DNA from: an uncultured Candidatus Saccharibacteria bacterium
Lineage (GTDB): Bacteria; Patescibacteriota; Minisyncoccia; Phycocordibacterales; UBA2135
Assembly (NCBI GenBank): GCA_964348495.1
Contig: CAYGCZ010000001.1
Location: 7,951-71,950, forward strand
Direction of reading: 5' to 3'
Length of the DNA: 64,000 nt
The notes beneath the pieces are model-generated. The model was not told the DNA's origin. It searched no databases and was given only the letters and a program-made list of their open reading frames with translations. Shown one piece after another: positions 5,693 to 64,000 of this stretch. Numbering within the stretch: position 1 is the first letter of the stretch; every line of letters starts with the position of its first letter. The position numbers and the translations under genes are program-made.

Positions 5693-5724
5693 GCCGACAG
5701 CTGGCAGTCATCTGTTCATCACCT

Positions 5725-9381
<3,657 letters not shown>

Positions 9382-9387
9382 TACGGT

Positions 9388-11220: not shown

Positions 11221-11227
11221 CATTGTT

Positions 11228-24278: not shown

Positions 24279-24311
24279 TTACTTTTCGCCGCGAGAGCGG
24301 CATAGCATCAT

Positions 24312-25433
24312 ATGGCACTCGACAGTTCAAGCATGAGACAAGAGCGAGCTACGGCTCCGCAAGGCGGCCTGCTCCTTGCGCGCGTCTTGTATGGCAAGGT
24401 TACCCTCACCCAAAAGGCGCTTTTCGCCAAACATATGGCGGTCATGTTGCGTTCGGGTCTCACTATCACTGAGGCGTTACACACCGCGATCGACACCTCA
24501 AGCGGGCGTTTGAAGCAGATCATGAAAGAGGTCGAGCAATCGGTACAAGCGGGCAAGCCGCTCTCAACCGCACTTGCCGGTTATCAGGACGTCTTCTCAG
24601 ACCTCTTCGTCAATGTCGTCTATGTCGGCGAGGCCTCCGGAACTCTCGTGGAGAATCTTGAGAATCTCGCCGTCCAGATCGAGAAAGAGCGTGATCTGCG
24701 CGCAAAATTGCTTGGTGCCATGATCTACCCGATCATTGTCTTTTCGGCGACTTTCATTTTGAGCTTGGTGCTCGCCTTCGTCGTCCTGCCAAAATTGATT
24801 CCGCTCTTTCAGGGGCTGAAAGTTCAGTTGCCTCTCTCCACGCGTATTTTAATCGCGATGGCGGGCTTCATAGAGAATCATGTTTTTCTGATCGTCGGTT
24901 CGGTCTTTGGTACCCTTGCCGGTCTCACCTTTTTGGTCCGTCAACGCTTTGTGCGCCCGATTACGCACTATGTTTTGCTCAAGATACCGCTTATCGGCCC
25001 GGTGGTGCACGATGTCAATCTGGTGCTCTTTGCTCGCACCTTGCGCATGCTTCTTACAAGCGGTCTCAACATTGATGAGACGATTGAGATCGCCCACAAC
25101 GCCGTCAGCAACCACTATTATCAGCAGGCATTGCGCGATGTGAGCCGCGCTATCCGTACCGGTACCAAACTCTCCCAGAATCTTGCCCGTTACAACGACC
25201 TCTTTCCGCCGCTCGTCTCGCGCATGGTGCGCGTGGGTGAGGAGTCGGGACAGCTTGAGGAGACGCTTTCGTATCTTGAGAGTTTCTATGAAAAGGAGGT
25301 GGATAATTCCACCAAGACACTCTCCATTGCCATCGAGCCCGTCTTGCTCCTTGTCTTGGGCCTCGGCGTCGGCTTCTTGGCACTCTCGATTATCACGCCG
25401 ATCTACAGCATTACGGGTAGTATCGGCAAATAA
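24312..25433 (+). CDS. pilC: type IV pilus / T2SS platform protein PilC/GspF family
   Basis: Two GspF-like repeats with 3 TM segments. Confidence 0.88.
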   Translation: MALDSSSMRQERATAPQGGLLLARVLYGKVTLTQKALFAKHMAVMLRSGLTITEALHTAIDTSSGRLKQIMKEVEQSVQAGKPLSTALAGYQDVFSDLFVNVVYVGEASGTLVENLENLAVQIEKERDLRAKLLGAMIYPIIVFSATFILSLVLAFVVLPKLIPLFQGLKVQLPLSTRILIAMAGFIENHVFLIVGSVFGTLAGLTFLVRQRFVRPITHYVLLKIPLIGPVVHDVNLVLFARTLRMLLTSGLNIDETIEIAHNAVSNHYYQQALRDVSRAIRTGTKLSQNLARYNDLFPPLVSRMVRVGEESGQLEETLSYLESFYEKEVDNSTKTLSIAIEPVLLLVLGLGVGFLALSIITPIYSITGSIGK

Positions 25434-25440
25434 TAGCTCT

Positions 25441-25989
25441 ATGTATCAGATATCATATATCATATATCAGATATCGAAACAGGCGGGCCTGCCCGCCGCG
25501 CCTGCGCTCGGTCGTTCCTTGCGCTCCAGGGCGGGTTTTACCTTCATTGAACTCCTGATCGTGATCGGCGTTTCTCTGATTGTCTACGGCATGTCGCTTT
25601 CAGTATCGGTCCGCACTCAACCATCAATACAGGTAAGCGAATCGGCGGCGCATATCGTTCAGACGATTCGCATCGCCAAGAACGCAAGCCATGCGCGCTT
25701 TCACGGCGCGGCGCACGGGGTTTTCTTCGAAAATAATGCGACGAACAATGATCGCTATATCGCCTATCAAGGTGCCACCTACGCAACGCGCGATACGGCC
25801 TACGACAGTATCACCACACTGGATGCAGGGTTGTCGCTCTCAAGTACGTTCCCGTCGAGCGGCGATATTAATTTTTCAAAAGGGCTTGGCGTGCCGAGTG
25901 CCACGGGGACGGTATCGCTTATGCATGCTGTAACAGGTGAGACGAAGACCATAACCGTCAACGGCATTGGCGCGGTCAACAGTGATTAA
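25441..25989 (+). CDS. pseudopilin or minor pilin with prepilin-type N-terminal cleavage/methylation motif
   Basis: SRAG|FTFIELLIVIGVSLIVYG. The start was chosen at ATG 25441, within the longer ORF 25183..25989 that overlaps pilC. Confidence 0.7.
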   Translation: MYQISYIIYQISKQAGLPAAPALGRSLRSRAGFTFIELLIVIGVSLIVYGMSLSVSVRTQPSIQVSESAAHIVQTIRIAKNASHARFHGAAHGVFFENNATNNDRYIAYQGATYATRDTAYDSITTLDAGLSLSSTFPSSGDINFSKGLGVPSATGTVSLMHAVTGETKTITVNGIGAVNSD

Positions 25990-25990
25990 C

Positions 25991-28900
25991 ATGCAGAAGT
26001 ATACGCTTCGAAGAGGTCAGACGTTGCTGGAGGCGATCATCGCGATTGCGCTTTTCGCTTTGTTGGTGAGTGCGATGGTCTCAATCGGTACGGGTGGATT
26101 TGTCGGTATTGATCGCGGCGGTGATCAGACGGAGGCCGAGTCGCTCGCCCAGGAGGGATTGGAGGCGGTACGCGCCATTCGCGACGACGCATGGCGCCGG
26201 CTCGCCTTCTCCACGAGCTCGGTCGCCGTCTCCGCCGGCGGATGGATCTTCAGCGGGGAGGGGACGACGGAAACGGTCGGCGACTTCACCCGCACCATCT
26301 CTCTGCGCGATGTCTGCCGCGACGGGTCAAACAACCTTACCGCCTGCCCGGGATCCTTTGTTGATCTGCATACCAAAGAGATCGTCGTAACGGTAACCTG
26401 GCAGACCAGTACCGGTATTGTGAACAGTATAGAGCGTTCAATGTACCTCTCCAATTGGCAATCGCGCGATTGGACGCAGACCGATTGGTCGGGCGGCTCC
26501 GGCTTCACGACATGGTCTGATGCTACGCCCACCAGGTACAACCTCAACGACGGCGGCATCGACCATGCGACGGCGGGGCAATTCTCTATCGCGTCCGTTC
26601 CGTCGGGAGGGAGTATCGGCCGATGGATCCCCGGTGGCGGTACATCGGTTACCCATACTTCAGCATCACACTTTAATGCAGGGACGTTCGCGAGTACGAC
26701 AGTATCCGGCAGTGGTAATGCGGCTCTTGTTCAGCTTGCCACGCAAGTCCAATGGTCAACGTTTATCCCCACCTCCGAGAGCGGCGATCCGCGCGGATTG
26801 AACGACCTTGAATTCGGCTCCGACCTCGTCGTCTCCGAGTTCGGCTATGCTGTCGGTAAGAATGGAACCATCATGAAGTGGGATGGTGCATCATGGGGAG
26901 CACAGACGAGCGGCACTACTCAGGAGTTGCACGGCGTTTCTATCATGGACAGCGCGGACGTATGGGCTGTGGGCGATAACGGTACGATCATGCATTGGAA
27001 CGGTTTCAGCTGGTCGAGCGTGCAGTCGGCGTCGGTCAAGAGCCTGCTGGATGTCTTCTTGACTTCGGAGACTGATGGATGGATCGTCGGTGCAGGTGGC
27101 GATATTCAGCGGTGGAATGGCGCCATCTGGACAGCATTTATCTCACCGACGAGCCGCAACATGTACAGCTTGGATTTTGTGACCGTCAACGATGGCTGGT
27201 CCGTCGGTGCCAACGGCGAGATTATGCGCTGGAACGGTACGAGCTGGAGCGTTGTCGTCTCTCCCACGACTCAAGCACTCAACGACGTGCACCTCTACGA
27301 TGCTTCCAACGGATGGGCGGTAGGCAACAATGGCGCGATTCTGCGCTGGAATGGCACCATCTGGACATCGCAGACCGCCCCCGACAATACTGAGCTTTTC
27401 GGTGTCTATGCCGTCTCTGCGACGGAGGCGTGGGCGACGGGCAATAGCGGTACGCTCATTCACACCACTAATAGTGGCGCTACCTGGTCGCTCGTATCGG
27501 TCGCTACGAGCGACCCTCTGCGCGATATTTATATGATCAGTGCCTCCAATGGCCAGTTCGTCGGCGGTTCTCCGACCGTCCCCACCATTTTCCAATACGA
27601 CGGGGTGAATTGGACCGATATTTCAGGCGTCCTCAACAACGACGCCATTTACGACATATCAATGATCAGTTCAAGTGATGGTTGGGCTTCCGGCAACGCA
27701 GGACTCATTCTTCATTGGAATGGCAACGACTGGCTCTCGGTAACATCACCGACCAACAGCGACCTCCAGACTATCGACATGGTCGATGCTTCCAACGGTT
27801 TTGCCGCCGGACAAAATGGCAAGATTGTTCATTACAACGGCTCATCGTGGTCGTTGCAGACCTCGGGGGTGAGCGCAACCCTCTTGGGTTCATCTGCAGT
27901 AAGCGCCTCGACGGCATGGATCGTCGGCAACTCGGGCACGATCCTCAAGACGATAAATAGCGGCTCGACATGGTCTGCTCAGACGAGCCCTGTCGGTTCA
28001 AGTTTGCGGAGCGTCTATGCGGTGGATACCTCCAACGCATGGGCAGTCGGTGCGGCCGGCGTTATCTTGAGTACGAGCAATGGCGGTACGACATGGACAC
28101 AACGGACGAGCGGGACAACAAACACTCTCAACGGTGTGCATTTCGTGGACACATCCAACGGATGGGCGGTAGGTAATAACGGTACAATACGCAAGACCAA
28201 TAATGCCGGCGTTACTTGGACGACCGTAACGAGCGGCACGACCAACGACCTGCTTGCGGTGTACTTTACGAGCATCTCCGACGGTTGGGCAGTCGGTGTC
28301 AACAGCGTTCTTTTGCACTGGAACGGCGTCTCGTGGACGACGGTAACGTCGCCCGTTTCCGAAGATATGCATACGGTCGCGATGGTCAACGGCTCCGATG
28401 TCTGGGCCGCGGGTCAATCATCGGTCTTCATTCACTATGGCTTGTCATATTATCTTTCGGGTACCTTCACCTCCTCCGTTATAGACAGCGGGGATGTCTC
28501 GGCGAGCTGGGACTTCATCAAGTGGACGGAGAATATCAACGCCGGATGGACGGATATCACCGTGGATACGCGGACGGGTAATACCTCCACACCGGATGCT
28601 ACTTGGTCCGCCTTCGTCGGCGGGTATACCGATCCGCTTGGCGATCCGATCATCTCACCCGACAGCCGCTACATCCAATATCGTGTCAGTTTTACTACCA
28701 TTGATAGTCAACAGACATCAACCTTGAGCGACCTCACTATCGACTATAACAACCCCACAACACAAGATCTCTACGGCGTGGAGATGCTCTCGGCATCGTC
28801 GGGCTTCGCGAGTGGCGGCGCACGGACGGTCTTTGAATACGACGGCGTCGCGTGGAGCGAGCAAACGAGCGGCGCGGCGGTCATCATGCGCGATGTTGAT

Positions 28901-29929
28901 TTTGTTACCAGTTCTACGGGATGGGCCGTAGGTGACGGGGGTGTTATTATAAAAACGACCAACGGCGGTTCAAGCTTCAGCACGCAGACGAGCGGTACGG
29001 CGCTCAATTTGAACGGCGTCGCGTTTGTCGACGCAAACAACGGCTGGGCTGTCGGCAATACAGGGGCGATCCGCGCGACAGTAAACGGCGGCAGTACGTG
29101 GTCGGGGCAGACGAGTGGCACGACAGCGAACTTGCAAGACGTTTTCTTTGTCAGTACGACTGAGGGCTGGGCCGTTGGCGCGGCGGGTACGATCTTGCAT
29201 ACGGTAAACGGCGGCAGTACGTGGTCTTCCCAGACGAGCGGCACGACCAATGGATTGAACGACCTCTTTTTTACCGGCAGTACGACCGGATGGACCGTCG
29301 GCAACGGTGGCGTAATACGTCAAACGACCAACGGCGGCTCGACGTGGGTAGCACGCACCTCGCAGACGACCAACAATCTCTACGGTCTCGGCTTCTTCGG
29401 TACCAACAACGGCTGGGCGGTCGGCGCGGCGGGGACGATCATGCGCTATGCCGGTATTGACTGGGCACTCTTCACCTCGCCGGTAACGGTAGATCTCCAA
29501 GATGTATCATTCAGTACGGCGACCGATGGCTGGGGTGTCGGTGCAGGGGGTCTTTTCATTCACTTCACCATCAATGAAGTGGCGACACCCTACCTCACCT
29601 CCGGCGTGCTTACCTCATCGGGCTTTGACATGGGCGATACCCAAGCGGCTGTCAATACGCTCGACTGGGATGAGCTTATTCCCTCGTGTTCGCCCGTGTG
29701 CACCGTGCGCTTTCAGCTCTCCACCGCTCCCGACAGCGGGGGAGTACCCGGGACATTTAGCTCGTGGTACGGAGCGGCCGGTATCAATACCTACTTCACC
29801 CATGCGACGAGTGGGGTAGCGGTGCCGACCTCCCTGCCGACAAACCGCTGGGTGCGCTATCGCACACTCCTCGATAGCGACGGCAGTGCGACGCCGACCG
29901 TCTATGAGATGCGGCTTAATTATCAATGA
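25991..29929 (+). CDS. giant pilin-like protein: prepilin-type N-terminus followed by ~20 Ycf48/BNR-like beta-propeller repeats (putative pilus tip adhesin)
   Basis: RRG|QTLLEAIIAIALFALLV. Repeats of the form TxNGGxTWxxQTSGTTxxLxxVxFVDxxNGWAVGxxGTI are numerous. Confidence 0.75.
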   Translation: MQKYTLRRGQTLLEAIIAIALFALLVSAMVSIGTGGFVGIDRGGDQTEAESLAQEGLEAVRAIRDDAWRRLAFSTSSVAVSAGGWIFSGEGTTETVGDFTRTISLRDVCRDGSNNLTACPGSFVDLHTKEIVVTVTWQTSTGIVNSIERSMYLSNWQSRDWTQTDWSGGSGFTTWSDATPTRYNLNDGGIDHATAGQFSIASVPSGGSIGRWIPGGGTSVTHTSASHFNAGTFASTTVSGSGNAALVQLATQVQWSTFIPTSESGDPRGLNDLEFGSDLVVSEFGYAVGKNGTIMKWDGASWGAQTSGTTQELHGVSIMDSADVWAVGDNGTIMHWNGFSWSSVQSASVKSLLDVFLTSETDGWIVGAGGDIQRWNGAIWTAFISPTSRNMYSLDFVTVNDGWSVGANGEIMRWNGTSWSVVVSPTTQALNDVHLYDASNGWAVGNNGAILRWNGTIWTSQTAPDNTELFGVYAVSATEAWATGNSGTLIHTTNSGATWSLVSVATSDPLRDIYMISASNGQFVGGSPTVPTIFQYDGVNWTDISGVLNNDAIYDISMISSSDGWASGNAGLILHWNGNDWLSVTSPTNSDLQTIDMVDASNGFAAGQNGKIVHYNGSSWSLQTSGVSATLLGSSAVSASTAWIVGNSGTILKTINSGSTWSAQTSPVGSSLRSVYAVDTSNAWAVGAAGVILSTSNGGTTWTQRTSGTTNTLNGVHFVDTSNGWAVGNNGTIRKTNNAGVTWTTVTSGTTNDLLAVYFTSISDGWAVGVNSVLLHWNGVSWTTVTSPVSEDMHTVAMVNGSDVWAAGQSSVFIHYGLSYYLSGTFTSSVIDSGDVSASWDFIKWTENINAGWTDITVDTRTGNTSTPDATWSAFVGGYTDPLGDPIISPDSRYIQYRVSFTTIDSQQTSTLSDLTIDYNNPTTQDLYGVEMLSASSGFASGGARTVFEYDGVAWSEQTSGAAVIMRDVDFVTSSTGWAVGDGGVIIKTTNGGSSFSTQTSGTALNLNGVAFVDANNGWAVGNTGAIRATVNGGSTWSGQTSGTTANLQDVFFVSTTEGWAVGAAGTILHTVNGGSTWSSQTSGTTNGLNDLFFTGSTTGWTVGNGGVIRQTTNGGSTWVARTSQTTNNLYGLGFFGTNNGWAVGAAGTIMRYAGIDWALFTSPVTVDLQDVSFSTATDGWGVGAGGLFIHFTINEVATPYLTSGVLTSSGFDMGDTQAAVNTLDWDELIPSCSPVCTVRFQLSTAPDSGGVPGTFSSWYGAAGINTYFTHATSGVAVPTSLPTNRWVRYRTLLDSDGSATPTVYEMRLNYQ

Positions 29930-29994
29930 ATATGAAGTATCCAGTAAGAAGCATAGAGCGCGGATCAGTCGTATATCGCCGTGCGTGCGCCGAT

Positions 29995-30495
29995 ATGCGG
30001 GGCGTAACGCTCATGGAGTTTCTCGTCTACATCGCCATCATAAGCGGCGTCGCTTTGGCATTCGTTACTTTTTCACTCGCGATCCTCAATACCAAGAGTA
30101 AGACGTATGTGGTCCAAGAAGTCTATGCCAACGAGCGTATCGCATTGGACATCATGACGCGCAAGATACGCGCGGCGACGAGCATCATGATCTCCTCCTC
30201 AACCTTCGACATCGATCCGGGGGTGTTGGTCTTCCATACCGATGCCTCCTCAACCGACCCCACGATCATCGACCTCTCGGCGGACAATGGCTCATTGCGC
30301 ATCACCGAAGGGACATCCTCGCCGGTCTTGATCACAAGCGACCAGGTCTATGTTACCAACCTGCAATTCACCAATCTGACCGCCTCCTCAACCTATGAGA
30401 ACGTACGCATAGAGCTGACCATGGCATATGCCTCGTCATCGCTGCTCACGACGGCACAGGTGAGCGCGCGCACGGCGGTCAGTCTGCGCAATTAA
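29995..30495 (+). CDS. pseudopilin or minor pilin
   Basis: MRG|VTLMEFLVYIAIISGVALAF prepilin-type motif. Confidence 0.65.
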   Translation: MRGVTLMEFLVYIAIISGVALAFVTFSLAILNTKSKTYVVQEVYANERIALDIMTRKIRAATSIMISSSTFDIDPGVLVFHTDASSTDPTIIDLSADNGSLRITEGTSSPVLITSDQVYVTNLQFTNLTASSTYENVRIELTMAYASSSLLTTAQVSARTAVSLRN

Positions 30496-30500
30496 TACGT

Positions 30501-30944: not shown

Positions 30945-32138
30945 ATGAGTCCTCTTGGCACCATCTCACAACTCTTCTCGCAACCCGGTACAAGCGGTGT
31001 TGGTCTTGAAATATCCGACACATCGGTCAAGATCGCTTCATTGCGCATCAATCGCAGTCGTTTCGCCGTCTCGGGGGTGGGGGGTGCTCCTTTGGAGCTC
31101 GGCACCGTCGTGAAAGGCAAGATTAAAGATAGGGAGCGTTTGGGTCAAGCACTTCGCCTCGCCGCTTCATCGGCGCAACCTACGCCAGTCGCCTTGCAGT
31201 CGCTCATTTTCGCGGTGCCCGAATATCTCGTCTATACCTATTCGTTCTTCCTGACGCGCCAGGCATTCGAAGATACCGTCAAGAGCAAGAAGCTTGAGAC
31301 ATTGATCCGCAATGCCGCAGAGCGTTATATTCCCATCGGGTCAAAAGATCTGCTTATTACGCATCGTATAACGCGTCGCAGGGATCAGACCGTGCAGATC
31401 TTCGTCGTCGGTACGGAACGCAGCGCCCTTCTTGAGTGGGATGCATTCTTTAAAAGTATCGGCATCGTATCGGTCATTTTCGATATTCCCGCTTTTGCAA
31501 CTTTTCGGGTGCTTTTTGCCGAATCTCAAAAGAACGGCGCGTGTATCATCGACATCGGCGATACGGTAACCACCGTTTTTCTTTTCAATGCCGACGGACT
31601 GGTGCATTCGTATCTCCTTGTTCGTGGTGGCGAAACCATCACGACAGCACTTATGTCGAAACTTTCGATATCGCATAATGACGCCGAAGAGATAAAGCGT
31701 ATCGTCGGGCTCTCCGATCCTGCACATGCCGCGTATCCGATACTTGTCGAGCAGGTACAACCGATTCTTGCTGATGTCGCGCGAACCCTCCTCTTTTTCC
31801 AAAAGAATTCCGGCCTCTCCATACCCGAGGCAATATCCATCGGCGGAACGAGTGTCATGCCCGGCTATGCGGAGTATGCATCGTCGGCGGTCGGTATTCC
31901 GGTACGCATCGGGGGTATTCCTCATGAATCGGACGCAAAAGCGGGCGGTATTGACGGGTATATGCAGGTGATCGGAATGGCTATGCGTGCTCTGGACAAA
32001 CGCTGGGAGCGAACCGATCCGGCGTTCACTTCCGCTCAATTGATCGTCAAAGAAGATGAACATAGCGAGGGCGCAGCATCGACTGAAACTCCGGAATCGA
32101 CGTTTGTCCGTTTGAGGAAGCAAATCTTCAAGATATGA
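30945..32138 (+). CDS. pilM: type IV pilus assembly protein PilM (actin-like ATPase fold)
   Basis: VGLEISDTSVKIASL... N-terminal actin-fold motif and the expected size. No pilN or pilO follows. Confidence 0.6.
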   Translation: MSPLGTISQLFSQPGTSGVGLEISDTSVKIASLRINRSRFAVSGVGGAPLELGTVVKGKIKDRERLGQALRLAASSAQPTPVALQSLIFAVPEYLVYTYSFFLTRQAFEDTVKSKKLETLIRNAAERYIPIGSKDLLITHRITRRRDQTVQIFVVGTERSALLEWDAFFKSIGIVSVIFDIPAFATFRVLFAESQKNGACIIDIGDTVTTVFLFNADGLVHSYLLVRGGETITTALMSKLSISHNDAEEIKRIVGLSDPAHAAYPILVEQVQPILADVARTLLFFQKNSGLSIPEAISIGGTSVMPGYAEYASSAVGIPVRIGGIPHESDAKAGGIDGYMQVIGMAMRALDKRWERTDPAFTSAQLIVKEDEHSEGAASTETPESTFVRLRKQIFKI

Positions 32139-42688: not shown

Positions 42689-42892
42689 TTATATGCGGCT
42701 GATGTTTGATGCCTGGGGACCCTTCTGACCCTGCGTTACCTCGAACTCGAGCGTATCGCCCTCGTTGAGATCATCGAAGGCAACATTCTGGAGGTCGTTC
42801 GCATGGAAGAAGAGGTCTTTCTCGTTGCCCTCAATCTTGATAAAGCCGAAGCCACCATCCTTCTTGAGGCGAGCAATAATACCTTTTTGCAT
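42689..42892 (-). CDS. cspA: cold-shock protein
   Basis: KKDGGFGFIKIEGNEKDLFFH RNP motifs. The gap up to the next gene at 43015 would be a long 5' UTR. Confidence 0.92.
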   Translation of the reverse strand: MQKGIIARLKKDGGFGFIKIEGNEKDLFFHANDLQNVAFDDLNEGDTLEFEVTQGQKGPQASNISRI

Positions 42893-43014: not shown

Positions 43015-44331
43015 TTAACGAACAAAGGTCAACGCTTTTCCACGGTGTACACCGCGACCGGTGCGGCCGATGCGGTGCACATAATCTTCGTAGGTGGCGG
43101 GAAGGTCGTAGTTGATGACGTGCGATACGTTGTCTACGTGGATACCGCGCGCCGCGACGTCGGTCGCTACGAGCACCTTCACCTCGCTCTCTTTGAAGCG
43201 TTTGAGCGCGCGCTGGCGCTGGGGGTGAGATTTGTTGCCGTGAATCGAATCGGCTGTGATGCCGTGGCGGTTGAGCTCGACGCTCAATTTCTCCACGCTG
43301 TGCTTCATGGCGCCAAAAACGATGACACGCGTGAAATCTTCGCGTACTAGAAGTGATGCCAATACGGCGAGTTTGTCGCCGTCGCCGTGGCGTACCACGT
43401 CCTGCTCAATGTTTGCGGTGATCTCTTTCTTCTTGACCGAGACGGTGATCGGCTCGCGCAAGAAATCGTGGATGAGTTTCTCGATATTGGGCGACATCGT
43501 CGCAGAGAAGAAGAGCGTCTCGCGTTCTTTGGGCGTATCCTTGAGGATTTGCTTTATGTCATGGATGAAACCCATGTCCAACATGCGGTCCGCCTCGTCC
43601 AAGATAACGGTCGTGAAAGTGCCGGGGTTGATGCACCGGCGATTGATGAGATCGAGGATGCGCCCCGGGGTGCCGATGATGAAGTGATTGAGACGCTTCA
43701 ACTGCATGATTTGCGGGCGGATTCCCGTGCCGCCCACGCAGACGGTGGAGAAGACCTTCATGCCGCGTGCAAGTTTGCGAAGCTCTTGTTCAACCTGGAT
43801 GGCGAGCTCGCGCGTCGGGGCGAGGATGAGTGTCCGGCGTTCTCGGTTTTGTACCGTGGCGTTGATGATGGGTATCAAGAAAGCCGCCGTCTTGCCGGTG
43901 CCGGTGTTGGAAAGACCTACGACATCGCGCCCTTTGAGAATAAGGGGGATGATCTGGTCTTGAATGGCCGTGGGAGCAGTAATACCCGCCTCGCGGATGT
44001 TGGTGAGAAGCGTACGGTCGATACCGAATGTCTCAAAGGCGTGGACGGGCGTATAGATCGCCTCCGGCTCGTGTGTAGCCGGATTGCGATTTATGTAGCG
44101 CGAGACATCGAAGGTGCTTATTTTGCGACCGGGTCGTGATCCGCGGCCAAACGAGGAGCGGCGATCGCCATGTGAAAAGCGGTTACCCCCGCCGCTTCGC
44201 GGACGCGAGGGGGATGAACTGGATGAGCCATGCCCGCGCGATGGTGCGCCACGGCGGCTGGCAGAAGGACGCCCCCCTGAACTTGAATAAGAAGAGGCGC
44301 GCCGATCCTGTCGGTGTGATGATGAATGCAT
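43015..44331 (-). CDS. DEAD-box ATP-dependent RNA helicase with N-terminal Arg/Ser/Gly-rich extension
   Basis: Q-motif F..PT.IQ, GTGKTAAF, DEAD, SAT, HRIGRTGR. The N-terminal ~80 aa are RS/RG-rich and the C-terminus is short. Confidence 0.88.
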   Translation of the reverse strand: MHSSSHRQDRRASSYSSSGGRPSASRRGAPSRGHGSSSSSPSRPRSGGGNRFSHGDRRSSFGRGSRPGRKISTFDVSRYINRNPATHEPEAIYTPVHAFETFGIDRTLLTNIREAGITAPTAIQDQIIPLILKGRDVVGLSNTGTGKTAAFLIPIINATVQNRERRTLILAPTRELAIQVEQELRKLARGMKVFSTVCVGGTGIRPQIMQLKRLNHFIIGTPGRILDLINRRCINPGTFTTVILDEADRMLDMGFIHDIKQILKDTPKERETLFFSATMSPNIEKLIHDFLREPITVSVKKKEITANIEQDVVRHGDGDKLAVLASLLVREDFTRVIVFGAMKHSVEKLSVELNRHGITADSIHGNKSHPQRQRALKRFKESEVKVLVATDVAARGIHVDNVSHVINYDLPATYEDYVHRIGRTGRGVHRGKALTFVR

Positions 44332-44534: not shown

Positions 44535-46199
44535 TCAAACAAGACCGCGCACCCCATCTTTTGCCTTCATGCCGGAAAGGGGAATGGAGATGAAAAAGAC
44601 CGTGCCGCGATGTTCGGTCGATTCGAACCAAATACGCCCACCGGATTGTTCCATGATCGCTTTGACGATATAGAGCCCGAGGCCCGACCCGTCCGGATCG
44701 ATCAATCGCGCGTTGTCGGCGCGAAACATCTTGGTAAATATCTTGCCTTGTTGTGCAAGAGGGATGCCATGCCCGGTGTCGCTCACTTGTATAATAAGTG
44801 AGGTATCTTCTCGTCGCGTTTCAACGGAGATCGAGCCGCCGGCATTGGTGTATTTGATCGCGTTAGAAAGGAGATTTTGGATCACGGCACGCACAAGTTG
44901 ATGATCCAGAAGGACCTCCGGTATCACCCCGTAGGACTTTGTCAGTGTCAGATGTTTATTCTCCATGATGCCGGCAACCTCGCGTAAGGTCTCTTCGATA
45001 AGTTCGTTGACTTGAAGCGGTTTGGGAACGATGGCGAGCGTGCCCAGCTCAATATGCATCGCATTCAACATCGCATTGACAAGGTGTAATAATTGGCGGT
45101 TGCTTGTGGTGATGCGCGAAAGTCCCTCTACGACAGGTTGAGGCAGGACACTGCCCGGATATTGCTCCAAGAGCATCGAACTGTATCCTCCGATGATGGT
45201 AATGGGCGTGCGGAGTTGGTGGGTGGCAAGCGCAATAAACTCTTCGCGCGCTTTTTTGAGTTCATATTCTTTGGAGATGTCGCGAAAGACGATAATGACT
45301 CCCATGAGTCTGCCGGTAGGGTTGAAGATGGGTGCCGCACTGTCGCCAAGGGGGATCTCCACGCCCGACTTGGTGGTAAGCAGGGTGTTGTTATTCATGT
45401 AGGTTACCCGCCTCAAGTCCATCGCTTCTTTGATAAACCCCATGTTCTCCGCGCGGTCTTCGGCGCGTATCAACTTCATGATATTGCGGAACGGTTTACC
45501 AAGCACCTCGTCCTTATCCCATCCGGTAATGCGCGTCGCACTGCGGTTCCAGACGGTGATCGTCCACTCGGGATTGATGACGACCACGCCGTCGCCGATA
45601 CTTTCAATGATCTGGTTTAAGTTGTGAAACTCGCGGTCGCGCAAGGTCGTCATGCGACGAACGGTCTCAGTCGCACCTCTCAGGAGGACATAGATGTTCT
45701 GCAAGGTCTCTTGATCGAACGATCCTTCATCGGGGGTGGAGAGGTTGATGAGTACAGCAAGTGTTCCGGGTATGATCAGGGGAACATTGACATGTGAACG
45801 AGGGGATGCTTCGAGCGCAAGGGCGGTAGTGCCGGTTGTGCGTATATCAAGACGGAAATCGCTCTTCAGCCATTGCTGAAGGATGGTTTCGCGCACGCTT
45901 GGCAGGGTTGAAAGACCCAGAAAGAGATCTTCTTTGATTGTTGCTATATACACTTCTCCAATCGTGTCAGTAGCGGGAACGCGGATGTAGAGTAAGTCGG
46001 CGGGGATGGAGGGATCAAGCGGCGCTATGGCATAACTGACGATAATGCGCGGGAAAAGTTTTTGAATCGCGGTCGTCACATGTTCCATCACCTCAGTCAT
46101 ATCAAGACTGCCGCTCAAGGCCTGGTAGAGGTTTTTAATCGCTTCAAGTTCGGCAACTTTGCGTTCAAGTTCAAGGGATGATCTGGTGATCGTGTTCAT
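44535..46199 (-). CDS. cytoplasmic sensor histidine kinase (GAF-like/PAS + HisKA + HATPase)
   Basis: H-box ATHQLRTPITIIGGY, G-boxes DTGHGIP and GSGLGL, and a PAS segment with WNRSATRITGW. Confidence 0.85.
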   Translation of the reverse strand: MNTITRSSLELERKVAELEAIKNLYQALSGSLDMTEVMEHVTTAIQKLFPRIIVSYAIAPLDPSIPADLLYIRVPATDTIGEVYIATIKEDLFLGLSTLPSVRETILQQWLKSDFRLDIRTTGTTALALEASPRSHVNVPLIIPGTLAVLINLSTPDEGSFDQETLQNIYVLLRGATETVRRMTTLRDREFHNLNQIIESIGDGVVVINPEWTITVWNRSATRITGWDKDEVLGKPFRNIMKLIRAEDRAENMGFIKEAMDLRRVTYMNNNTLLTTKSGVEIPLGDSAAPIFNPTGRLMGVIIVFRDISKEYELKKAREEFIALATHQLRTPITIIGGYSSMLLEQYPGSVLPQPVVEGLSRITTSNRQLLHLVNAMLNAMHIELGTLAIVPKPLQVNELIEETLREVAGIMENKHLTLTKSYGVIPEVLLDHQLVRAVIQNLLSNAIKYTNAGGSISVETRREDTSLIIQVSDTGHGIPLAQQGKIFTKMFRADNARLIDPDGSGLGLYIVKAIMEQSGGRIWFESTEHRGTVFFISIPLSGMKAKDGVRGLV

Positions 46200-46259
46200 A
46201 GGAGTAGGCGGGTGTCGTCTTCATCTCTGTGTCCGTAGAGTGTTCAGCAGACGCATCGT

Positions 46260-46838
46260 TTACCGAGGGAGGACGATAACGCCACCGAGTGATTGTATTT
46301 CATGGATCAGCTCGGTATTGGCGGATGATTGTGAGACAAGTGAGACAATCCCCGTCGCTCCGTGTTTCCTCAGAAGAGCGTGAATTTTCTTGATGAATGT
46401 CTTGGTCAGATCAAGGGCATTGTAAAGCAGGATGACGGTGAGCGAGTCGAGGAAGACGAATTTTTTTGAAGGATCGCCCTCAAGATGCTTTTTGAGTTCG
46501 TCGAATATCTGATCCAGTGCGAGTGGTCCGGAGACGTAGGTAACGCCAGACGTTTGCGACTCTCCGATGCCATACATGTGGGCGATACCATCGATGAATT
46601 TTATAGAGCCGACCTGTACACCTTCGCGCGCCATCGTGGCGGCTATTTCGCCATAATCTTTGGTTAAGGTGATATAGATGCCCATGTAGCCGAGGTCTTG
46701 CATGGTCTTGACCGATAGGATGTTTTCGGAGGTCGCGTTCTCAAGCGTACCTTTCAATACAATAAGCGAACCGGTCGCCGCCTCAGTGAGATGTTGCGAA
46801 AGTTCACGCGAGGGAGGGGTATGCGTTTCTATGGTCAT
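46260..46838 (-). CDS. KaiC-like (RecA-superfamily) single-domain protein with degenerate Walker A
   Basis: GSLIVLKGT replaces GxxxxGKT. The rest aligns with a KaiC/RadA-type domain, e.g. FVFLDSLT. Confidence 0.45.
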   Translation of the reverse strand: MTIETHTPPSRELSQHLTEAATGSLIVLKGTLENATSENILSVKTMQDLGYMGIYITLTKDYGEIAATMAREGVQVGSIKFIDGIAHMYGIGESQTSGVTYVSGPLALDQIFDELKKHLEGDPSKKFVFLDSLTVILLYNALDLTKTFIKKIHALLRKHGATGIVSLVSQSSANTELIHEIQSLGGVIVLPR

Positions 46839-46883
46839 AAGGGTGATAATAAAACAGAAAGACGATGTTGGACGTAGTGGCGA

Positions 46884-48587
46884 CTATTGTTCAAGCACTT
46901 TTCGAAGCTGATCAACATATTCTTTGTTGCGACGGGCGGAAATAATACCCTGATCGCCAAACTCCTGGATGAGTTTTTGAATCCTGCTCGGTGAGAGGCC
47001 TTTGCGCTGTTCTTCTTTGAATATTTTTTCTCCCAATGGCCCCCATATTTCGGTGAGAAGGTCGCGGAGTTGTTCTTCGATGGTTTTACTCACTTTGCGT
47101 ACCTCTCCTCCAAGTGCGCCTTCATAACCGCTAAACGAGGTGAGTACCTGCAGACCCTTCTCGGTAAAGATGAACTCGCGCAGTTTTTTGTCGTGAGCGG
47201 AGGCGCGAATCTTCAAGAGCAGAACGCCATGTTTGATTTCGGATTGCACTTCGATGAAACGCAGAAGAACGATCGTATCGTAGAAGGTTGAAAGATGCGC
47301 CTCAGTGATCTCGCCTGCGCCGAGGATACCCGATGTGGCGGCGGTGAAATATGATGTGGTACCTTTGTTTTTGCAGTAATTGATGAGGCGCGATGAAAAA
47401 TCGGGAAGACTTTCGGGGGTAAAGACATGTTCCAATGCCGACAGTGAATCTACAACAATACGATCAGCGTCAGATGCTTCCAGTGCTCGGGTGATGGATT
47501 GCAGGTGTTCTTCCATGTAACGCTCCTCGGGATAGGCGCAGATAATCTGCAAAAGACCCTCTTTTTCAAAGCGGGCGAAGTCCCAACCGAATGAGCGTGC
47601 CGTGTGCATCAATTGATCACGCGACTCCTCAAAAGAGACGAGTAAGGCGCGTTCGCCCCGCTTCAAGCCGGAAGCAAGAAAATGAAGACCCATGATGGTC
47701 TTACCCGTACCCGAGGCGCCGCTTACGAGAATCGTCGATCCCTTAAGATAGCCGCCACCCGTCATGGCGTCTAAACCTTCAGGACCTGTGGATATCCGCT
47801 CTTCCGAGATGGGGTAGGATAATTCGCGCTCCAAACGAGGGAAGATGGCGATGCCGGTACGACTGATGCGAAAAGCAGCAGGTGATTGCTCGTAATCAGT
47901 GCCGCGCATCTTCACAACTTCAAGTTGGTGGCTTGAAGCACTTCTTGTTTTTACGAAGGATAGGCGGATGATGCCATCGGAGATGAACTCTTCTGTCCCG
48001 AAAACGCTCAACTCGGCTCCGGGTGTTTCGCTCGTGAGGATGATGTTGACATCCTGTTGGGAGAGGGCGGTGCCGATCTGGAAGATGAAGTCGCGGACCT
48101 TGCTCCTGTCCTTCAAATGGTAGGCAATCGCAGTAACGGAATCCAAAACAACGCGTTTTGCTCCCGACTGGGCGACCATATTTTTTATGGTCTCCACAAT
48201 ACGCCCTATATCCTCAAACGAGAACTCATCTTTGGTGATGTCGAGACCCTGCATGATGCCACGCAGGTCGGTGAAGTACACCTGCAGAGGCCCCACGGCG
48301 GTAGGATCGAAGAATGCTAGTTTTTTGGCGTTGCGTATCGCCTTGGCGACCGGCTCCGTAAGTGAGATATAAATACCCGGCTCGTGATATTGTTGATAAC
48401 CCTCAAAGAGCCATTGTGTCGCCAAAATAGTCTTGCCGGTGCCGGACTGTCCCGACAGGAGGACGGCAGATCCGATAGGAATTCCGCCATGGAGGAGATG
48501 ATCAAGTTCAATAATGCCGGTTTGTTGTTGACCGCGCGTCGTATCGCTCACCCCCGTCGCAGTATGCAAGGTCATGTTGTGGGTCAT
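46884..48587 (-). CDS. kaiC: KaiC-family double RecA-domain ATPase
   Basis: Two domains with Walker A LLSGQSGTGKT and VSGASGTGKT, and Walker B VVLDSVT and IVVDSLS. Confidence 0.8.
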   Translation of the reverse strand: MTHNMTLHTATGVSDTTRGQQQTGIIELDHLLHGGIPIGSAVLLSGQSGTGKTILATQWLFEGYQQYHEPGIYISLTEPVAKAIRNAKKLAFFDPTAVGPLQVYFTDLRGIMQGLDITKDEFSFEDIGRIVETIKNMVAQSGAKRVVLDSVTAIAYHLKDRSKVRDFIFQIGTALSQQDVNIILTSETPGAELSVFGTEEFISDGIIRLSFVKTRSASSHQLEVVKMRGTDYEQSPAAFRISRTGIAIFPRLERELSYPISEERISTGPEGLDAMTGGGYLKGSTILVSGASGTGKTIMGLHFLASGLKRGERALLVSFEESRDQLMHTARSFGWDFARFEKEGLLQIICAYPEERYMEEHLQSITRALEASDADRIVVDSLSALEHVFTPESLPDFSSRLINYCKNKGTTSYFTAATSGILGAGEITEAHLSTFYDTIVLLRFIEVQSEIKHGVLLLKIRASAHDKKLREFIFTEKGLQVLTSFSGYEGALGGEVRKVSKTIEEQLRDLLTEIWGPLGEKIFKEEQRKGLSPSRIQKLIQEFGDQGIISARRNKEYVDQLRKVLEQ

Positions 48588-48595
48588 GGGATGGA

Positions 48596-49549
48596 TCAGT
48601 TATTGGTGAATTGATACTTTTTAAGGATCTGTTCGACAGCCGTGAGTTTCTTGGAGCCGAGGGCGATAAAGATGTACCCGCCTGCCTGCACGGCGAGAAA
48701 GAGGTAGATAATGCCCAAAATAGTTCCTAACCCAAAACCAAGAAGGCGCGAACCCAGTGAGAGAAGTATTTGCAAAATAATACCGCCCAGGATTACGAGG
48801 AAGATACCGGTTATGAAGCGTGCCGTTGCCGCTTTATAGACGATACCCGTCACATTTTTAAGGTAGCGGGTGAAGTGCGCGAGCGAAAGAAAGCCGAGGA
48901 GTAAGGAGAGGAAGAAGGGGATGATAATCGTTGCGATGATGATCGGGTCCGAGAGGGAGTAGGTCGCGGGCGTAGAAGCGTTGAGTGCCATCTCACGGTT
49001 GGGGTTGGTAAAGACGAGCCATGCGTAGGTGCCGCTTACCATGAGTGCTCCTGCGAGGGGAGTGAGTGTTTCACCAAAACTCAATCCATCGGCGCGCACT
49101 TTGTGAGCCATACCTTGCGCTCCCGTAAAGAAGTAACTGAATGAGACGAGTGGAATGAGAATATAGGCGTAGTTGATGAGTATGGTGATCATCGGCACCA
49201 GATCGCTTTCGCGCACCTGGAGGAGCTGGCGCGTGGAACTCAAAAAGGTTGTTATCAAGAGGCCCGCGGCGAGAATGAAGATACCCGTCGCAACGCGCCG
49301 AAGTGCATGGCGTTCGTCAAGGTCGGCGAGCGCGGCTGTGTAGGTTCGCAGTGCCAAGCCGCCATAGAAGGCGACGAGCCAGATGAAGAGGTAGGGGAGG
49401 GCGATAGAGAGGCGCAAGAGCATCACCTGAAACGTGCTCAATGAGCCGGTCAGTGGGTTGGGCGTATTTGGCTGAAGGACCGTGAGGAGCAGGTATCCGC
49501 TCCAGAGCACGATAATTGCTCCGTATATAAAAAGATCTTTCTTCATCAT
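48596..49549 (-). CDS. polytopic membrane protein (unknown), first gene of the KaiC operon
   Basis: About 8 TM segments; 8 bp upstream of kaiC. Confidence 0.5.
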   Translation of the reverse strand: MMKKDLFIYGAIIVLWSGYLLLTVLQPNTPNPLTGSLSTFQVMLLRLSIALPYLFIWLVAFYGGLALRTYTAALADLDERHALRRVATGIFILAAGLLITTFLSSTRQLLQVRESDLVPMITILINYAYILIPLVSFSYFFTGAQGMAHKVRADGLSFGETLTPLAGALMVSGTYAWLVFTNPNREMALNASTPATYSLSDPIIIATIIIPFFLSLLLGFLSLAHFTRYLKNVTGIVYKAATARFITGIFLVILGGIILQILLSLGSRLLGFGLGTILGIIYLFLAVQAGGYIFIALGSKKLTAVEQILKKYQFTNN

Positions 49550-49789
49550 AAAATATACATAGATGTACCCCCGTTCTCTTTATTATAGACAATGCACGGG
49601 ACAACTTCTACAACATGTTGTGTATAAGTGGCGTCCTGATTATCGCCACACACCCGTTTGGGGCATGCCTCGCAAGGCAGTACGTCGAAAGGGTTGTAGA
49701 GCGGTTTCTGTTATAGTGATAGATATTCAAAAATCATTGAAATATAAAGGGTTTTTAGGTACAAAACATTGACAAATCTGTAAAATGTA

Positions 49790-49818
49790 TTGACATTTGT
49801 ACCAAAAGATGCTATCAT
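49790..49818 (+). promoter_or_regulatory. sigma70-like promoter
   Basis: TTGACA at 49790-49795, a 17-nt spacer, then TATCAT at 49813-49818. A second TTGACA sits at 49769. Confidence 0.5.
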
Positions 49819-49843
49819 TTCAGCATAAGGTTAGATTGATTTT

Positions 49844-50502: not shown

Positions 50503-51195
50503 CTACAGATATATCAGCACGATGGCCAAGAGCATCATGCCAAAATCTTCAATCAACGTAACGGTGGTGAGAGGGACTGTAAGGAAGGTGCCGAGGCAGA
50601 CGCATTGGAATGGTTCGCGCTTCACGAGTTTCGTCGCAACACCCGCACCGCTTACCGCCATGACCGCCGCCTCCGTCCATAGAAGTGCAGGAGAGGTAAA
50701 ACCGAGGAGCATGAGGAGGCCGAAGGCGAGCTCAATGAACGGATAGGCGTACCCATACGCGAAGAATCGCTTGGCGATAAGGTCGTACTGGGCATAGCCC
50801 TCCGCGAATCCTTTGAGGTCGATGAGTTTGAAGCCCGCAAAGACGATGAAAAAGCCGACCATGAAGTACTCGATCCATAGAGCGAGCGAGAAGTCCGCCG
50901 GCGGTTGCGCGTAAAAGCTTGCGATGGTGGCAATGACGCAGATAGAGCCGATGATCGCAATGAGAGGAAGATAGTTTTTCCATGTGATCGTGCCTAGGCC
51001 GCGGTCTTTGGACACGGGGCGCGTGGGTTGCACCGAACCCTCTTCCACCAAGCGCATACCGCAGATCGGGCATGCGCCGGGGGCGGACTGTCGAATCTCC
51101 GGATGCATGGGGCAGGTGTACATAGGTAATTGAGGAAAAAAGGTTAGCTGGTAGGTCACATGATCGTTTGTCGGGGAAAGGGGGAGTTTCTTCAC
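50503..51195 (-). CDS. membrane protein with N-terminal CPMHPE-type heavy-metal-binding zinc ribbon and MauE/DoxX-like TM domain
   Basis: YTCPMHPEI...CPICGM, followed by 4 TM segments. Confidence 0.6.
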   Translation of the reverse strand: MKKLPLSPTNDHVTYQLTFFPQLPMYTCPMHPEIRQSAPGACPICGMRLVEEGSVQPTRPVSKDRGLGTITWKNYLPLIAIIGSICVIATIASFYAQPPADFSLALWIEYFMVGFFIVFAGFKLIDLKGFAEGYAQYDLIAKRFFAYGYAYPFIELAFGLLMLLGFTSPALLWTEAAVMAVSGAGVATKLVKREPFQCVCLGTFLTVPLTTVTLIEDFGMMLLAIVLIYL

Positions 51196-61948: not shown

Positions 61949-62668
61949 TTATTGCTGATGTTTTTTCCATGATTCAATCTTACTATTGAGGGTTTCAAGA
62001 ATACTATCAAAAATAATATCGGGGGCTTGTGAGGCGTCTATACTGACTATTCTTTCTGTTATTTCAAGTGGTAATCTCTTGCGAGCATTATAAAAAATAT
62101 CATATGAATCTTCTATTAATTTCCTTCTGAATTCAAGTTTAGGATCGGCAGGATCAAGTCTTCCCAATATAACTTCTTTTTCTGCGGTTAATTCAAAAAT
62201 AACATCGGGCAAAATATCGTCGAGGATAATCTTTTCTCCACGCTGGATAGGATAAAGATCTGAAATTAAAAGTATGTCATTAGCTGGATTATCTCTATCT
62301 ATTACAAATGATGCTCTTGATAAAAGAGACCGATCCAGAAGTGCGACTTGCTTATTAAGTACCCGTGCTTTCATTCGCCACTCCTTCATCTCTGTAACAA
62401 GTTTATATGCAGCCTCATGCCATTCTTCTGTGGTGCCTTGCTTACGAATTTTTTTGGCGTTCTCTTGCCACCAGATGTCAAATGGATCACCGTCGTGTGA
62501 ACCAGTGCCTTCTCGAGTACCATCTCCGCGTAACTCAACAAAATCAACATCGAGTTCTTTGAAAACTTTTTTTAGAAGATCTATCTGTGTTCCCTTTCCG
62601 ACACGATTAATACCTTCAAATGCTATGGTAGAAAGATCATTTGATTGATTCCTGAAACTTTCTTTCAT
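61949..62668 (-). CDS. thymidylate-kinase-like (dNMP kinase fold) protein with atypical P-loop
   Basis: AFEGINRVGKGTQ, versus the Tmk consensus IEGIDGAGKST. The gene is AT-rich. Confidence 0.55.
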   Translation of the reverse strand: MKESFRNQSNDLSTIAFEGINRVGKGTQIDLLKKVFKELDVDFVELRGDGTREGTGSHDGDPFDIWWQENAKKIRKQGTTEEWHEAAYKLVTEMKEWRMKARVLNKQVALLDRSLLSRASFVIDRDNPANDILLISDLYPIQRGEKIILDDILPDVIFELTAEKEVILGRLDPADPKLEFRRKLIEDSYDIFYNARKRLPLEITERIVSIDASQAPDIIFDSILETLNSKIESWKKHQQ

Positions 62669-63059
62669 AAGCGTTTTTTATTACATCGGAGGTCTTTGGT
62701 GTGAATTCCATATTTTCCATATTTTCTATAGTCATCCACGAAACTTCCTCCGTATCTTCTAAAGCTTTCGGTTCTCCTGATTCATAATCTGCAGTATAGA
62801 CGATGTAGACCATTCCATATATTTCTTTTTCTTTTATATTATTCTGAATCACGCAAAAGTTTTTTATTTTTATGCCAACCTCTTCCATAACTTCACGCTC
62901 TAACGCAGACTCTAGGTTCTGATCGCTCATATCTACCGTTCCGCCGGGAATACCCCATAATCCAGGAAAAACATCTTCCTTCATTGATCTTTTAACAATA
63001 AGCACCTTATCGTTATTGAAAATTACTACTGATACGTTAACTTTGAAAAATTTTGCCAT
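62637..63059 (-). CDS. NUDIX hydrolase
   Basis: Nudix box GGTVDMSDQNLESALEREVMEEVGI. It overlaps the Tmk-like gene by 32 nt. The start was taken at ATG 63059. Confidence 0.85.
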   Translation of the reverse strand: MAKFFKVNVSVVIFNNDKVLIVKRSMKEDVFPGLWGIPGGTVDMSDQNLESALEREVMEEVGIKIKNFCVIQNNIKEKEIYGMVYIVYTADYESGEPKALEDTEEVSWMTIENMENMEFTPKTSDVIKNAYERKFQESIK

Positions 63060-63063
63060 ACGC

Positions 63064-64000
63064 TTATATTTTAAATGTCTGTTCATTTTCTTCTATTGAA
63101 GATAGAAACATACTTGAAATTATTTTAGTGGTTAATAATTGATTCTCGATAAGAGTATTGCTTTGAGTATCATTTGCAAGGAATTTCTTGAAAATAATAT
63201 ATCGGGAAGTCTCATTCTGACCGAGATATTGAGGTAGGTCGGCATGATACTTATGATATATTTCTTGAACAAAGTTCCTAGTATCGAAAGATTTACCTCC
63301 AATCAACTTATTATTTCTAAAGAGGTTAATCTCTTGATGTTCTATGCCACCTACATCATATTTCGAATGTTCATCAACCCTTGCTGATTGATATGAGTGA
63401 AGCTGAATATTGAATAGCGGACCGATATGTAAATTAATATACTCATGCCTAAGACGACCATTCCCTTTATAGGTGTCCTTAGGAAGATCATACCATGCAC
63501 GACCAGAGAAACCAGACTGGAGCAGGTCTAGGTGTCCGAAAGAAACCACGTTCTCTCTATTGATTGGATATTCGCCATTTCTCAAGAAAAAACGTGTATA
63601 CGAGTCAACTTCGCCCATGTACATATTGGAGGGTTCATCAGTATCCTTTTCGAATAATCGCTTAAAAAGTTCCTTGCCTCCTATCTGCCTATAGTGAGTC
63701 TGTGGTTTTATGAGCTCTGTCCTATTGGAGAGATAAAGCATGGGTAGAATTACTTTATTTGTTTCTATTATCCATGCGACAATATCAATAAAATGATATC
63801 CAGAGTGCATGATTTTCCCATAACCATATTTATAAGGGTGATTCTCTCGAGAAAGATACTCTTCAGGCATATTCCACTGACCATCAGAGTGATGAATGTT
63901 AAAGAATGTGATTGGTATACCGTACTCCTTCACAATCTTAAGAGCTTCTTCGAAGATAAAAATATACGCTGGATGTTCTCGTCGTTGGGCTAAAACATAA
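63064..64000 (-). CDS. hypothetical protein, 5'-truncated by the window edge
   Basis: The reading frame stays open to position 64000; the GTG at 63933 is only an internal candidate start. No family was recognised. The region is AT-rich. Confidence 0.4.
   Translation of the reverse strand, partial: YVLAQRREHPAYIFIFEEALKIVKEYGIPITFFNIHHSDGQWNMPEEYLSRENHPYKYGYGKIMHSGYHFIDIVAWIIETNKVILPMLYLSNRTELIKPQTHYRQIGGKELFKRLFEKDTDEPSNMYMGEVDSYTRFFLRNGEYPINRENVVSFGHLDLLQSGFSGRAWYDLPKDTYKGNGRLRHEYINLHIGPLFNIQLHSYQSARVDEHSKYDVGGIEHQEINLFRNNKLIGGKSFDTRNFVQEIYHKYHADLPQYLGQNETSRYIIFKKFLANDTQSNTLIENQLLTTKIISSMFLSSIEENEQTFKI

Follow-up and report, generated by a model that had tools for sequence, protein, structure and literature searches.

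We found that a four-gene cluster at 44535-49549 on the minus strand of a 64,000-nt stretch of contig CAYGCZ010000001.1 from an uncultured Candidatus Saccharibacteria bacterium (the whole stretch is called the window here) encodes a double-domain KaiC and, next to it, a 192-aa KaiC paralog that has no P-loop. We favour, at a probability of roughly 0.55, the reading that the locus encodes a KaiC signalling core in which this inactivated KaiC paralog (iKaiC) is a non-catalytic partner of KaiC, a polytopic membrane protein provides input and a histidine kinase provides output. The four open reading frames (ORFs) are consecutive, with intergenic gaps of 8, 45 and 60 nt as read from the sequence, and the layout described in the initial annotation, four minus-strand genes separated by 8-60 bp, was confirmed exactly (Table 1). 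There were no terminator-like hairpins in any of the three gaps. We infer that the four genes are co-transcribed and that the module is non-circadian.

The 192-aa protein matched the Pfam family DUF7090 (PF23365) at 37.8 bits, above the gathering threshold of 27, and homologs from two related loci (L009 and L010; loci carry L numbers throughout) likewise exceeded this threshold. Against the Pfam KaiC model it scored 25.3 bits, just under the threshold of 26.6. DUF835, which had been suggested for comparison, gave an E value of only 0.049 in Pfam, and DUF7090 is the family that stands above threshold; weaker DUF7504 and DUF835 matches were seen among relatives of the protein, the Pfam model for MEDS did not match it, and NCBIfam had no model for it. 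An AlphaFold2 model built with 16 homologs was confident (predicted local distance difference test score, pLDDT, 86.5; predicted template modelling score, pTM, 0.85) and has the RecA/KaiC fold, a profile comparison aligned the protein to KaiC CI residues 69-181, and FlaH was among its top structural matches. The confident model and the CI alignment thus place the protein within the fold to which it had been assigned.

The same assignment had described the P-loop as decayed. Its absence was borne out, but a recent decay was not: the Walker A motif GxxxxGK[ST] was found in 0 of the 164 relatives examined and is also absent throughout the 16-sequence alignment, and because no family member carries the motif, we consider the loss of the P-loop to be old and stable. 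In the family, which comprised 1917 cluster representatives at E≤1e-3 (43 at E≤1e-30) in an exhaustive profile search, the position of the catalytic Glu-Glu pair reads (T/S/N)-(K/R)-(P/D), and the 192-aa chain terminates ahead of the KxRG segment found in KaiC domains. The protein has no P-loop, catalytic Glu or KxRG segment, and ATP binding and hydrolysis in the usual way are therefore ruled out for it. Other motifs are near-invariant in the family, namely FIDGIS (Asp 99%), YVSGP and KKFxFxDS(L/I)(T/S)TLLLYN (Asp 98%, Ser 93%, Tyr 93%), and the conserved positions in the 192-aa protein are D83, D131-S132 (an Asp-Ser at the Walker B position) and Y139-N140. Close homologs are under purifying selection, with a nonsynonymous rate (dN) of 0.056, a synonymous rate (dS) of 1.11 and a dN/dS of ~0.05. 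A recently decayed pseudogene is ruled out by this ratio together with the absence of the P-loop across 164 members. Judged by these features, the 192-aa protein is a stable and selected KaiC paralog, predicted to be non-catalytic, from an old P-loop-less family of the 'inactivated KaiC' type. The most conserved block of iKaiC, FIDGIS...YVSGPLS, falls at the position of the CI B-loop in alignments to KaiC. In KaiC CI, both KaiB and SasA dock at the B-loop, and we infer that the iKaiC block may be functionally equivalent to it.

Among distant members of the P-loop-less family, P0116 is a KaiB-V4R-iKaiC fusion. Fusions are likewise seen in P0084/P0129/P0131, with TPR/SNAP-like repeats and a C-terminal iKaiC (900-1360 aa), and in P0137, with an iKaiC-WD40 arrangement.

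To place the gene in context, we used 19 independent loci, each with a gene homologous to that of the 192-aa protein, a small sample of mostly short metagenomic contigs (pattern scans of genomes and metagenomes gave 2 and 7 loci, respectively). The loci were searched with the window proteins and with Pfam. In all 15 loci that had enough flanking DNA, a double-domain KaiC lies within two genes of iKaiC; it directly adjoins iKaiC in 12 loci, and one or two genes stand between them in L006, L009 and L018. This synteny is kept across loci whose KaiC proteins are just 36-57% identical. L022 repeats the four-gene order of the window exactly, with 34% identity for the membrane protein that heads it, 54% for KaiC, 36% for iKaiC and 42% for the kinase N-terminus. 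In L010, a Chlamydiia metagenome-assembled genome (JAJACM010000024.1, 5766-7727), a PAS domain is fused to the KaiC C-terminus (653 aa) and iKaiC follows. A PAS histidine kinase is present in L003, L006, L007, L008, L014, L018, L019 and L022, and in L007, L008 and L019 the kinase is followed by a stand-alone receiver, giving the order KaiC, iKaiC, histidine kinase, response regulator. The earlier suggestion of a non-catalytic partner gains from this comparison, since the 192-aa protein is conserved, selected and always found beside a double-domain KaiC.

Several of these loci have further features. The closest large relative, L006 (5012-13821), encodes in order KaiC, a membrane protein, a dCache-HAMP protein, iKaiC, a KaiB-like protein, a dCache-HAMP-PAS protein, a dCache_3-HAMP protein, a PAS protein and a kinase. 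The PAS tail seen on KaiC in L010 apparently also lies upstream of iKaiC in L015 and L016. In L009 (1654-3443), a PD-(D/E)XK_3 gene and a gene for a 23S-rRNA-intervening-sequence protein are inserted among KaiC, iKaiC and the KaiB-like gene, and they look like selfish or accessory insertions. In L024 (623-1839), the KaiC-iKaiC pair is immediately followed, on the opposite strand, by another iKaiC paralog that is divergent (21% identity).

The KaiC of the window consists of two tandem RecA-like KaiC domains (PF06745 twice, E 9e-91) and aligns over its full length to KaiC of T. elongatus (Thermosynechococcus; E 8e-97). It scored 423.6 bits against NCBIfam PRK09302, above the cut-off of 408, and 344 bits against the circadian equivalog TIGR02655, under the cut-off of 546. 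The motif alignment agreed with the initial annotation in finding Walker A and Walker B intact in both halves, with GTGKT at residues 46-53 and 290-297 and with VVLDS and IVVDS as the Walker B segments. The catalytic Glu pair of CII is retained as E320 and E321 (equivalents of E318 and E319), and the residues equivalent to the phosphosites T426/S431/T432 are T428, S433 and T434 ('TEAHLST' as compared to 'TESHIST' in the alignment). In CI, the position of the E77, E78 pair is T77-E78 ('SLTEP'), so that the first Glu is replaced by Thr. When we compared this KaiC with eleven from related loci, 10 of the 12 had T/S-E at this position, and the canonical EE was found in two, from L009 and L021, both of which are loci that also encode KaiB. 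The window KaiC ends in a 68-aa C-terminal extension (residues 500-567; 46884-47090) that has no Pfam match and is common only to the KaiCs of L006, L018 and L022 (46-56% identity). In the clade defined by this extension, every member has a membrane protein in the operon.

The kinase was confirmed as a cytoplasmic PAS histidine kinase, with only a weak signal for the GAF domain that had also been proposed. It has a GAF-like N-terminus (1-190), PAS (194-312), HisKA (317-383) and HATPase_c (433-542), and PAS, HisKA (42.7 bits) and HATPase_c (94.1 bits) all pass the Pfam cut-offs. The conserved His and the N, G1 and G2 boxes are seen in its translation as 'THQLRTP', 'NLLSNAIKYT', 'DTGHGIP' and 'GSGLGL', and it has no transmembrane segment. 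The N-terminal 190 aa gave a weak GAF_2 match (E 0.043; E 0.0032 for the homolog in L006, which is full-length at 31% identity) and no Pfam match to a KaiB/thioredoxin domain, and a homolog search with this N-terminus returned nothing. The 317-aa membrane protein has no match in Pfam or NCBIfam. Its place in the module is upheld by its conservation in the two nearest relatives, L022 and L023; the homolog in L023 (P0170) is 60% identical and its gene has a 4-nt overlap with that of the downstream KaiC (66% identity). L006 and L018 instead have two genes inserted between KaiC and iKaiC, one for a MASE3-like membrane protein and one for a dCache-HAMP protein. These arrangements support a putative membrane-derived input to the module. 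We also considered an anti-phage defence reading and rejected it, because PADLOC gave generic P-loop/HATPase matches only and none for the 192-aa protein or the membrane protein.

A tblastn search of the 64-kb window with three KaiB queries detected no KaiB, and there were no Pfam matches to KaiA, KaiB or a receiver among the genes called within ±10 kb of the operon, in agreement with the earlier claim that kaiA, kaiB and an adjacent response regulator are absent. The initial annotation had also proposed that the inactive paralog could serve as an adaptor, taking the place of KaiB between KaiC and the histidine kinase. In keeping with such an adaptor, KaiC, iKaiC and a histidine kinase occur without KaiB in the window and in L003, L007, L008, L019 and L022, usually in the order KaiC, iKaiC, kinase. 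However, a divergent KaiB-like gene lies directly 3' of iKaiC in six related loci (L006, L009, L011, L013, L017 and L021; the two genes overlap by 4 nt in the last of these), and because iKaiC co-occurs with KaiB in these loci and in the fusion P0116, a replacement of KaiB is not supported. Against a bridge to the kinase, iKaiC and KaiC occur with no kinase nearby in L004, L009 and L021; adjacency to KaiC is universal, whereas a kinase is found in about half of the loci. We therefore regard the adaptor as unlikely and as a weaker account than a partner of KaiC. Whether or not a lineage has KaiB or a nearby kinase, the conserved block of iKaiC is kept.

To look for a possible output, we compared the receivers that follow the kinase in L007, L008 and L019 with the window. 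Their sole match is a stand-alone receiver (37-42% identity) that sits 22 kb from the KaiC operon and whose gene is coupled to that of the type IV pilus ATPase PilB (Table 1). In L008, the operon of KaiC, iKaiC, histidine kinase and receiver runs straight into PilB and PilC, and its PilB is 47% identical to the window PilB over the full length. This suggests, as a lead only, that the kinase may signal to the PilB-associated receiver.

Table 1. Features of the KaiC-iKaiC operon and of its tentative output in the window.
Feature	Position	Strand	Description
Polytopic membrane protein	48596-49549	-	317 aa; ~8 hydrophobic helices; heads the operon; candidate input
Double-domain KaiC	46884-48587	-	567 aa; PF06745 x2
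Inactivated single-domain KaiC paralog (iKaiC)	46260-46838	-	192 aa; DUF7090 family
Cytoplasmic sensor histidine kinase	44535-46199	-	554 aa; GAF-like N-terminus, PAS, HisKA, HATPase_c
Divergent intergenic region 5' of the operon	49550-49843	.	294 nt; presumed promoter region
Stand-alone receiver, tentative output	22081-22500	+	139 aa; Response_reg 81 bits
PilB (MshEN + T2SSE)	22497-24278	+	start overlaps the receiver stop by 4 nt
PilC	24312-25433	+	after PilB; pilin-like genes next

In the mechanism that we propose, iKaiC would bind KaiC as a non-catalytic subunit, possibly through a surface formed by the FIDGIS...YVSGPLS block at the B-loop position, and through this binding it would set or read the ATPase and phosphorylation state of KaiC. 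The polytopic membrane protein may give an envelope or environmental input, and the MASE3-like and dCache-HAMP proteins may fill its place in sister loci. The GAF-like/PAS kinase would turn the state of KaiC into phosphotransfer to a stand-alone receiver, for which the candidate in this genome is the one translationally coupled to PilB, and KaiB would be an optional accessory of the core that is absent from this lineage. We ranked a partner of KaiC above a kinase adaptor, a KaiB decoy and a ligand sensor because KaiC is the sole partner that is always available. A bolder version, which we consider rather unlikely, is that the P-loop-less paralog is an obligate structural subunit in a separate class of KaiC machines, a detachable and nucleotide-free 'third KaiC domain' docked on the KaiC hexamer, whose CI-B-loop-like platform would recruit KaiB (where present) or the kinase, and that the resulting post-translational timer or integrator would gate the type IV pilus through the PilB-bound stand-alone receiver in small-genome bacteria.

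The conserved residues of iKaiC also bear on two other roles. If the paralog were a ligand-sensing input domain, a small molecule would occupy the vestigial nucleotide cleft and the signal would pass to KaiC, and the conservation of the Walker-B-position Asp-Ser and of Tyr-Asn despite the loss of the P-loop, as well as the fusion of distant members to varied protein-interaction modules, would fit a modular sensor or adaptor domain of this kind. A similar role has been proposed for the MEDS type. Both MEDS and DUF835 figure among the iKaiC domains listed for signalling proteins in PMC5847659. However, no ligand site was identified in the protein, the MEDS model fails to match it, and the operon already has sensor domains in the PAS, the GAF-like region and the membrane protein, which leaves a ligand sensor doubtful in our view. 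If the paralog were instead a decoy, it would mimic CI and, instead of itself binding KaiC, titrate a CI-binding partner (KaiB, or else the kinase) off KaiC. The position of the conserved block over the B-loop and the tight coupling to KaiB genes in six loci and in the KaiB fusion are compatible with sequestration, but the block is conserved in lineages without KaiB, so that its partner must be always present and only KaiC fits; we hold a decoy to be quite improbable. That the four genes are mere neighbours and independent units, with the 192-aa ORF a degenerate remnant, would agree with the lack of a Shine-Dalgarno-like sequence before any of the four genes but is very improbable given the purifying selection on iKaiC, the synteny across divergent KaiCs and the short gaps without terminators.

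Several observations weigh against the KaiC-iKaiC signalling core as we describe it. Our context census covers close relatives of the 192-aa protein, from a family that has ~1900 more distant members, some of them TPR or WD40 fusions. The kinase is missing from several iKaiC loci, as noted above, and kinase output is thus not universal. A mirror-tree comparison of KaiC and iKaiC gave a Pearson coefficient of 0.52 (Mantel 15/5000) and a Spearman coefficient that was not significant, and a few close pairs drive the signal. The AlphaFold2 model of the membrane protein, from a 2-sequence alignment, is all-helical and poor (pLDDT 56) and is unusable. In the divergent region upstream of the operon, the sole promoter match is a plus-strand consensus that serves the divergent gene, and because no minus-strand consensus matched there, the promoter of the operon was not located. 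Finally, the link to the receiver and PilB is a lead only because it is backed by synteny in a single contig and by receivers of moderate similarity.

Most KaiC homologs occur outside cyanobacteria, and the ways in which they signal in the absence of KaiA, and in many cases of KaiB too, are for the most part an open question in the field. The locus points to a testable partner protein for the regulation of KaiA-less KaiC: in a compact, conserved bacterial arrangement, a bona fide KaiC always travels with a copy of its own domain that lacks the ATP site. The core exists with and without KaiB, which provides natural comparison sets, and the link to a type IV pilus ATPase, if true, would be a concrete physiological output. 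Inactivated KaiC domains of archaea were reportedly treated by Makarova, Galperin and Koonin in 2017, and a counterpart in bacteria that is linked to canonical KaiC would join work on KaiC with archaeal inactive-KaiC proposals. No account of a KaiC-iKaiC pair in bacteria turned up in full-text searches of the available literature, and the pairing appears to be a conserved and undescribed combination of known parts.

We compared the locus with known systems. The iKaiC domains DUF835 and MEDS occur in archaeal signalling proteins (PMC5847659), and, like the 192-aa protein, they are KaiC/RecA-fold domains without ATPase motifs in signal-transduction contexts. In contrast, the protein in the window is bacterial (the Chlamydiia genome being one of the related loci) and stand-alone, and in the relatives examined it is always beside a double-domain, phosphosite-bearing KaiC and often with KaiB. 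In Pseudomonas, a KaiB-less module of KaiC, histidine kinase and receiver is non-circadian; its KaiC is phosphorylated, binds the kinase and the receiver, and has an influence on resistance to stress (Terrettaz et al., bioRxiv 10.1101/2022.01.26.477890). Both it and the window have a KaiB-less KaiC in an operon with a histidine kinase, but no inactive KaiC paralog or membrane protein is reported among the conserved neighbours listed for the Pseudomonas module (bioRxiv 10.1101/2022.01.26.477890), and its receiver is in the operon, whereas the candidate receiver of the window is outside. KaiC-RS of Rhodobacter sphaeroides, part of a KaiBC hourglass, is KaiA-less and has a C-terminal extension of ~50 aa that forms a long coiled coil (PMC10076222; PDB 8DBA, 8FWI). 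Compared with 8DBA, the window KaiC gives an alignment that spans residues 19-543 (E 8e-70), and it likewise has an extension; however, KaiC-RS has a Ser-Ser site, an uninterrupted coiled coil and KaiB, whereas in the window the site is Ser-Thr, KaiB is lacking and iKaiC stands beside KaiC, and we do not equate the two extensions because that of the window is interrupted by Gly and Pro.

The cyanobacterial KaiABC system with SasA and CikA resembles the window in having a double-domain KaiC with T426/S431/T432 or their equivalents, together with a histidine kinase that presumably serves as the readout. It differs in that the window has neither KaiA nor KaiB, its KaiC has Thr in place of the first CI Glu and scores below the TIGR02655 cut-off, and its kinase, unlike SasA, has a weakly GAF-like N-terminus with no KaiB/thioredoxin-type Pfam match. 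The archaellum proteins ArlH (FlaH) and ArlI also pair a single-domain KaiC-like protein with a larger ATPase, and the possible output in the window is likewise a type IV filament ATPase. ATP binding and autophosphorylation are reported for ArlH (bioRxiv 10.1101/2021.03.19.436134), whereas the 192-aa protein lacks a P-loop and would be connected to PilB, if at all, by way of a kinase and a receiver. Elp4/5/6, the Rad51 paralogs XRCC2/RAD51D, Psy3-Csm2 and BcsE are P-loop-poor RecA-fold partners that offer a structural analogy only; they have no specific sequence relationship to the 192-aa protein and act with other partners in other pathways.

Other genes in the window were noted along the way. 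The type IV pilus operon extends over 22081-30500 (+) and begins with the stand-alone receiver gene; in it, PilC is followed by a prepilin-like ORF with the motif GFTFIELLIVIGV; a 1320-aa protein with six BNR/YCF48-like repeats is encoded in it at 25967-29929, and PilM is at 30945-32138. Downstream of the kinase gene, after 203 nt, begins a 438-aa ORF (43015-44331, -) with the DEAD-box helicase motifs GTGKTAAF, DEAD, SAT and HRIGRTGR and an Arg/Ser/Gly-rich N-terminal tail; it is preceded by an 11/12 promoter-like site (44538-44510) and followed by a cold-shock-domain gene (42689-42892). This ORF is missing from the public annotation of the contig (L001), where a 250-aa ORF is called on the other strand in its place. 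At 50503-51195 (-), a 230-aa protein has Pfam matches to both a heavy-metal-binding HMBD motif and a MauE-type membrane domain, and its gene adjoins a gene like that for 3-demethylubiquinone methyltransferase. A compact rpoB (1062 aa) and rpoC (1218 aa) at 2504-12568 (+) are directly followed by dnaG and rpoD. There were no rRNA, tRNA or Rfam matches in the 64-kb window. Taken with the compact polymerase genes and the type IV pilus genes, this would fit a bacterium with a small genome, possibly a CPR-like one. The segment at 62001-64000 has a G+C content of 0.36 as compared to a window mean of ~0.52 and may be a foreign or intergenic segment.

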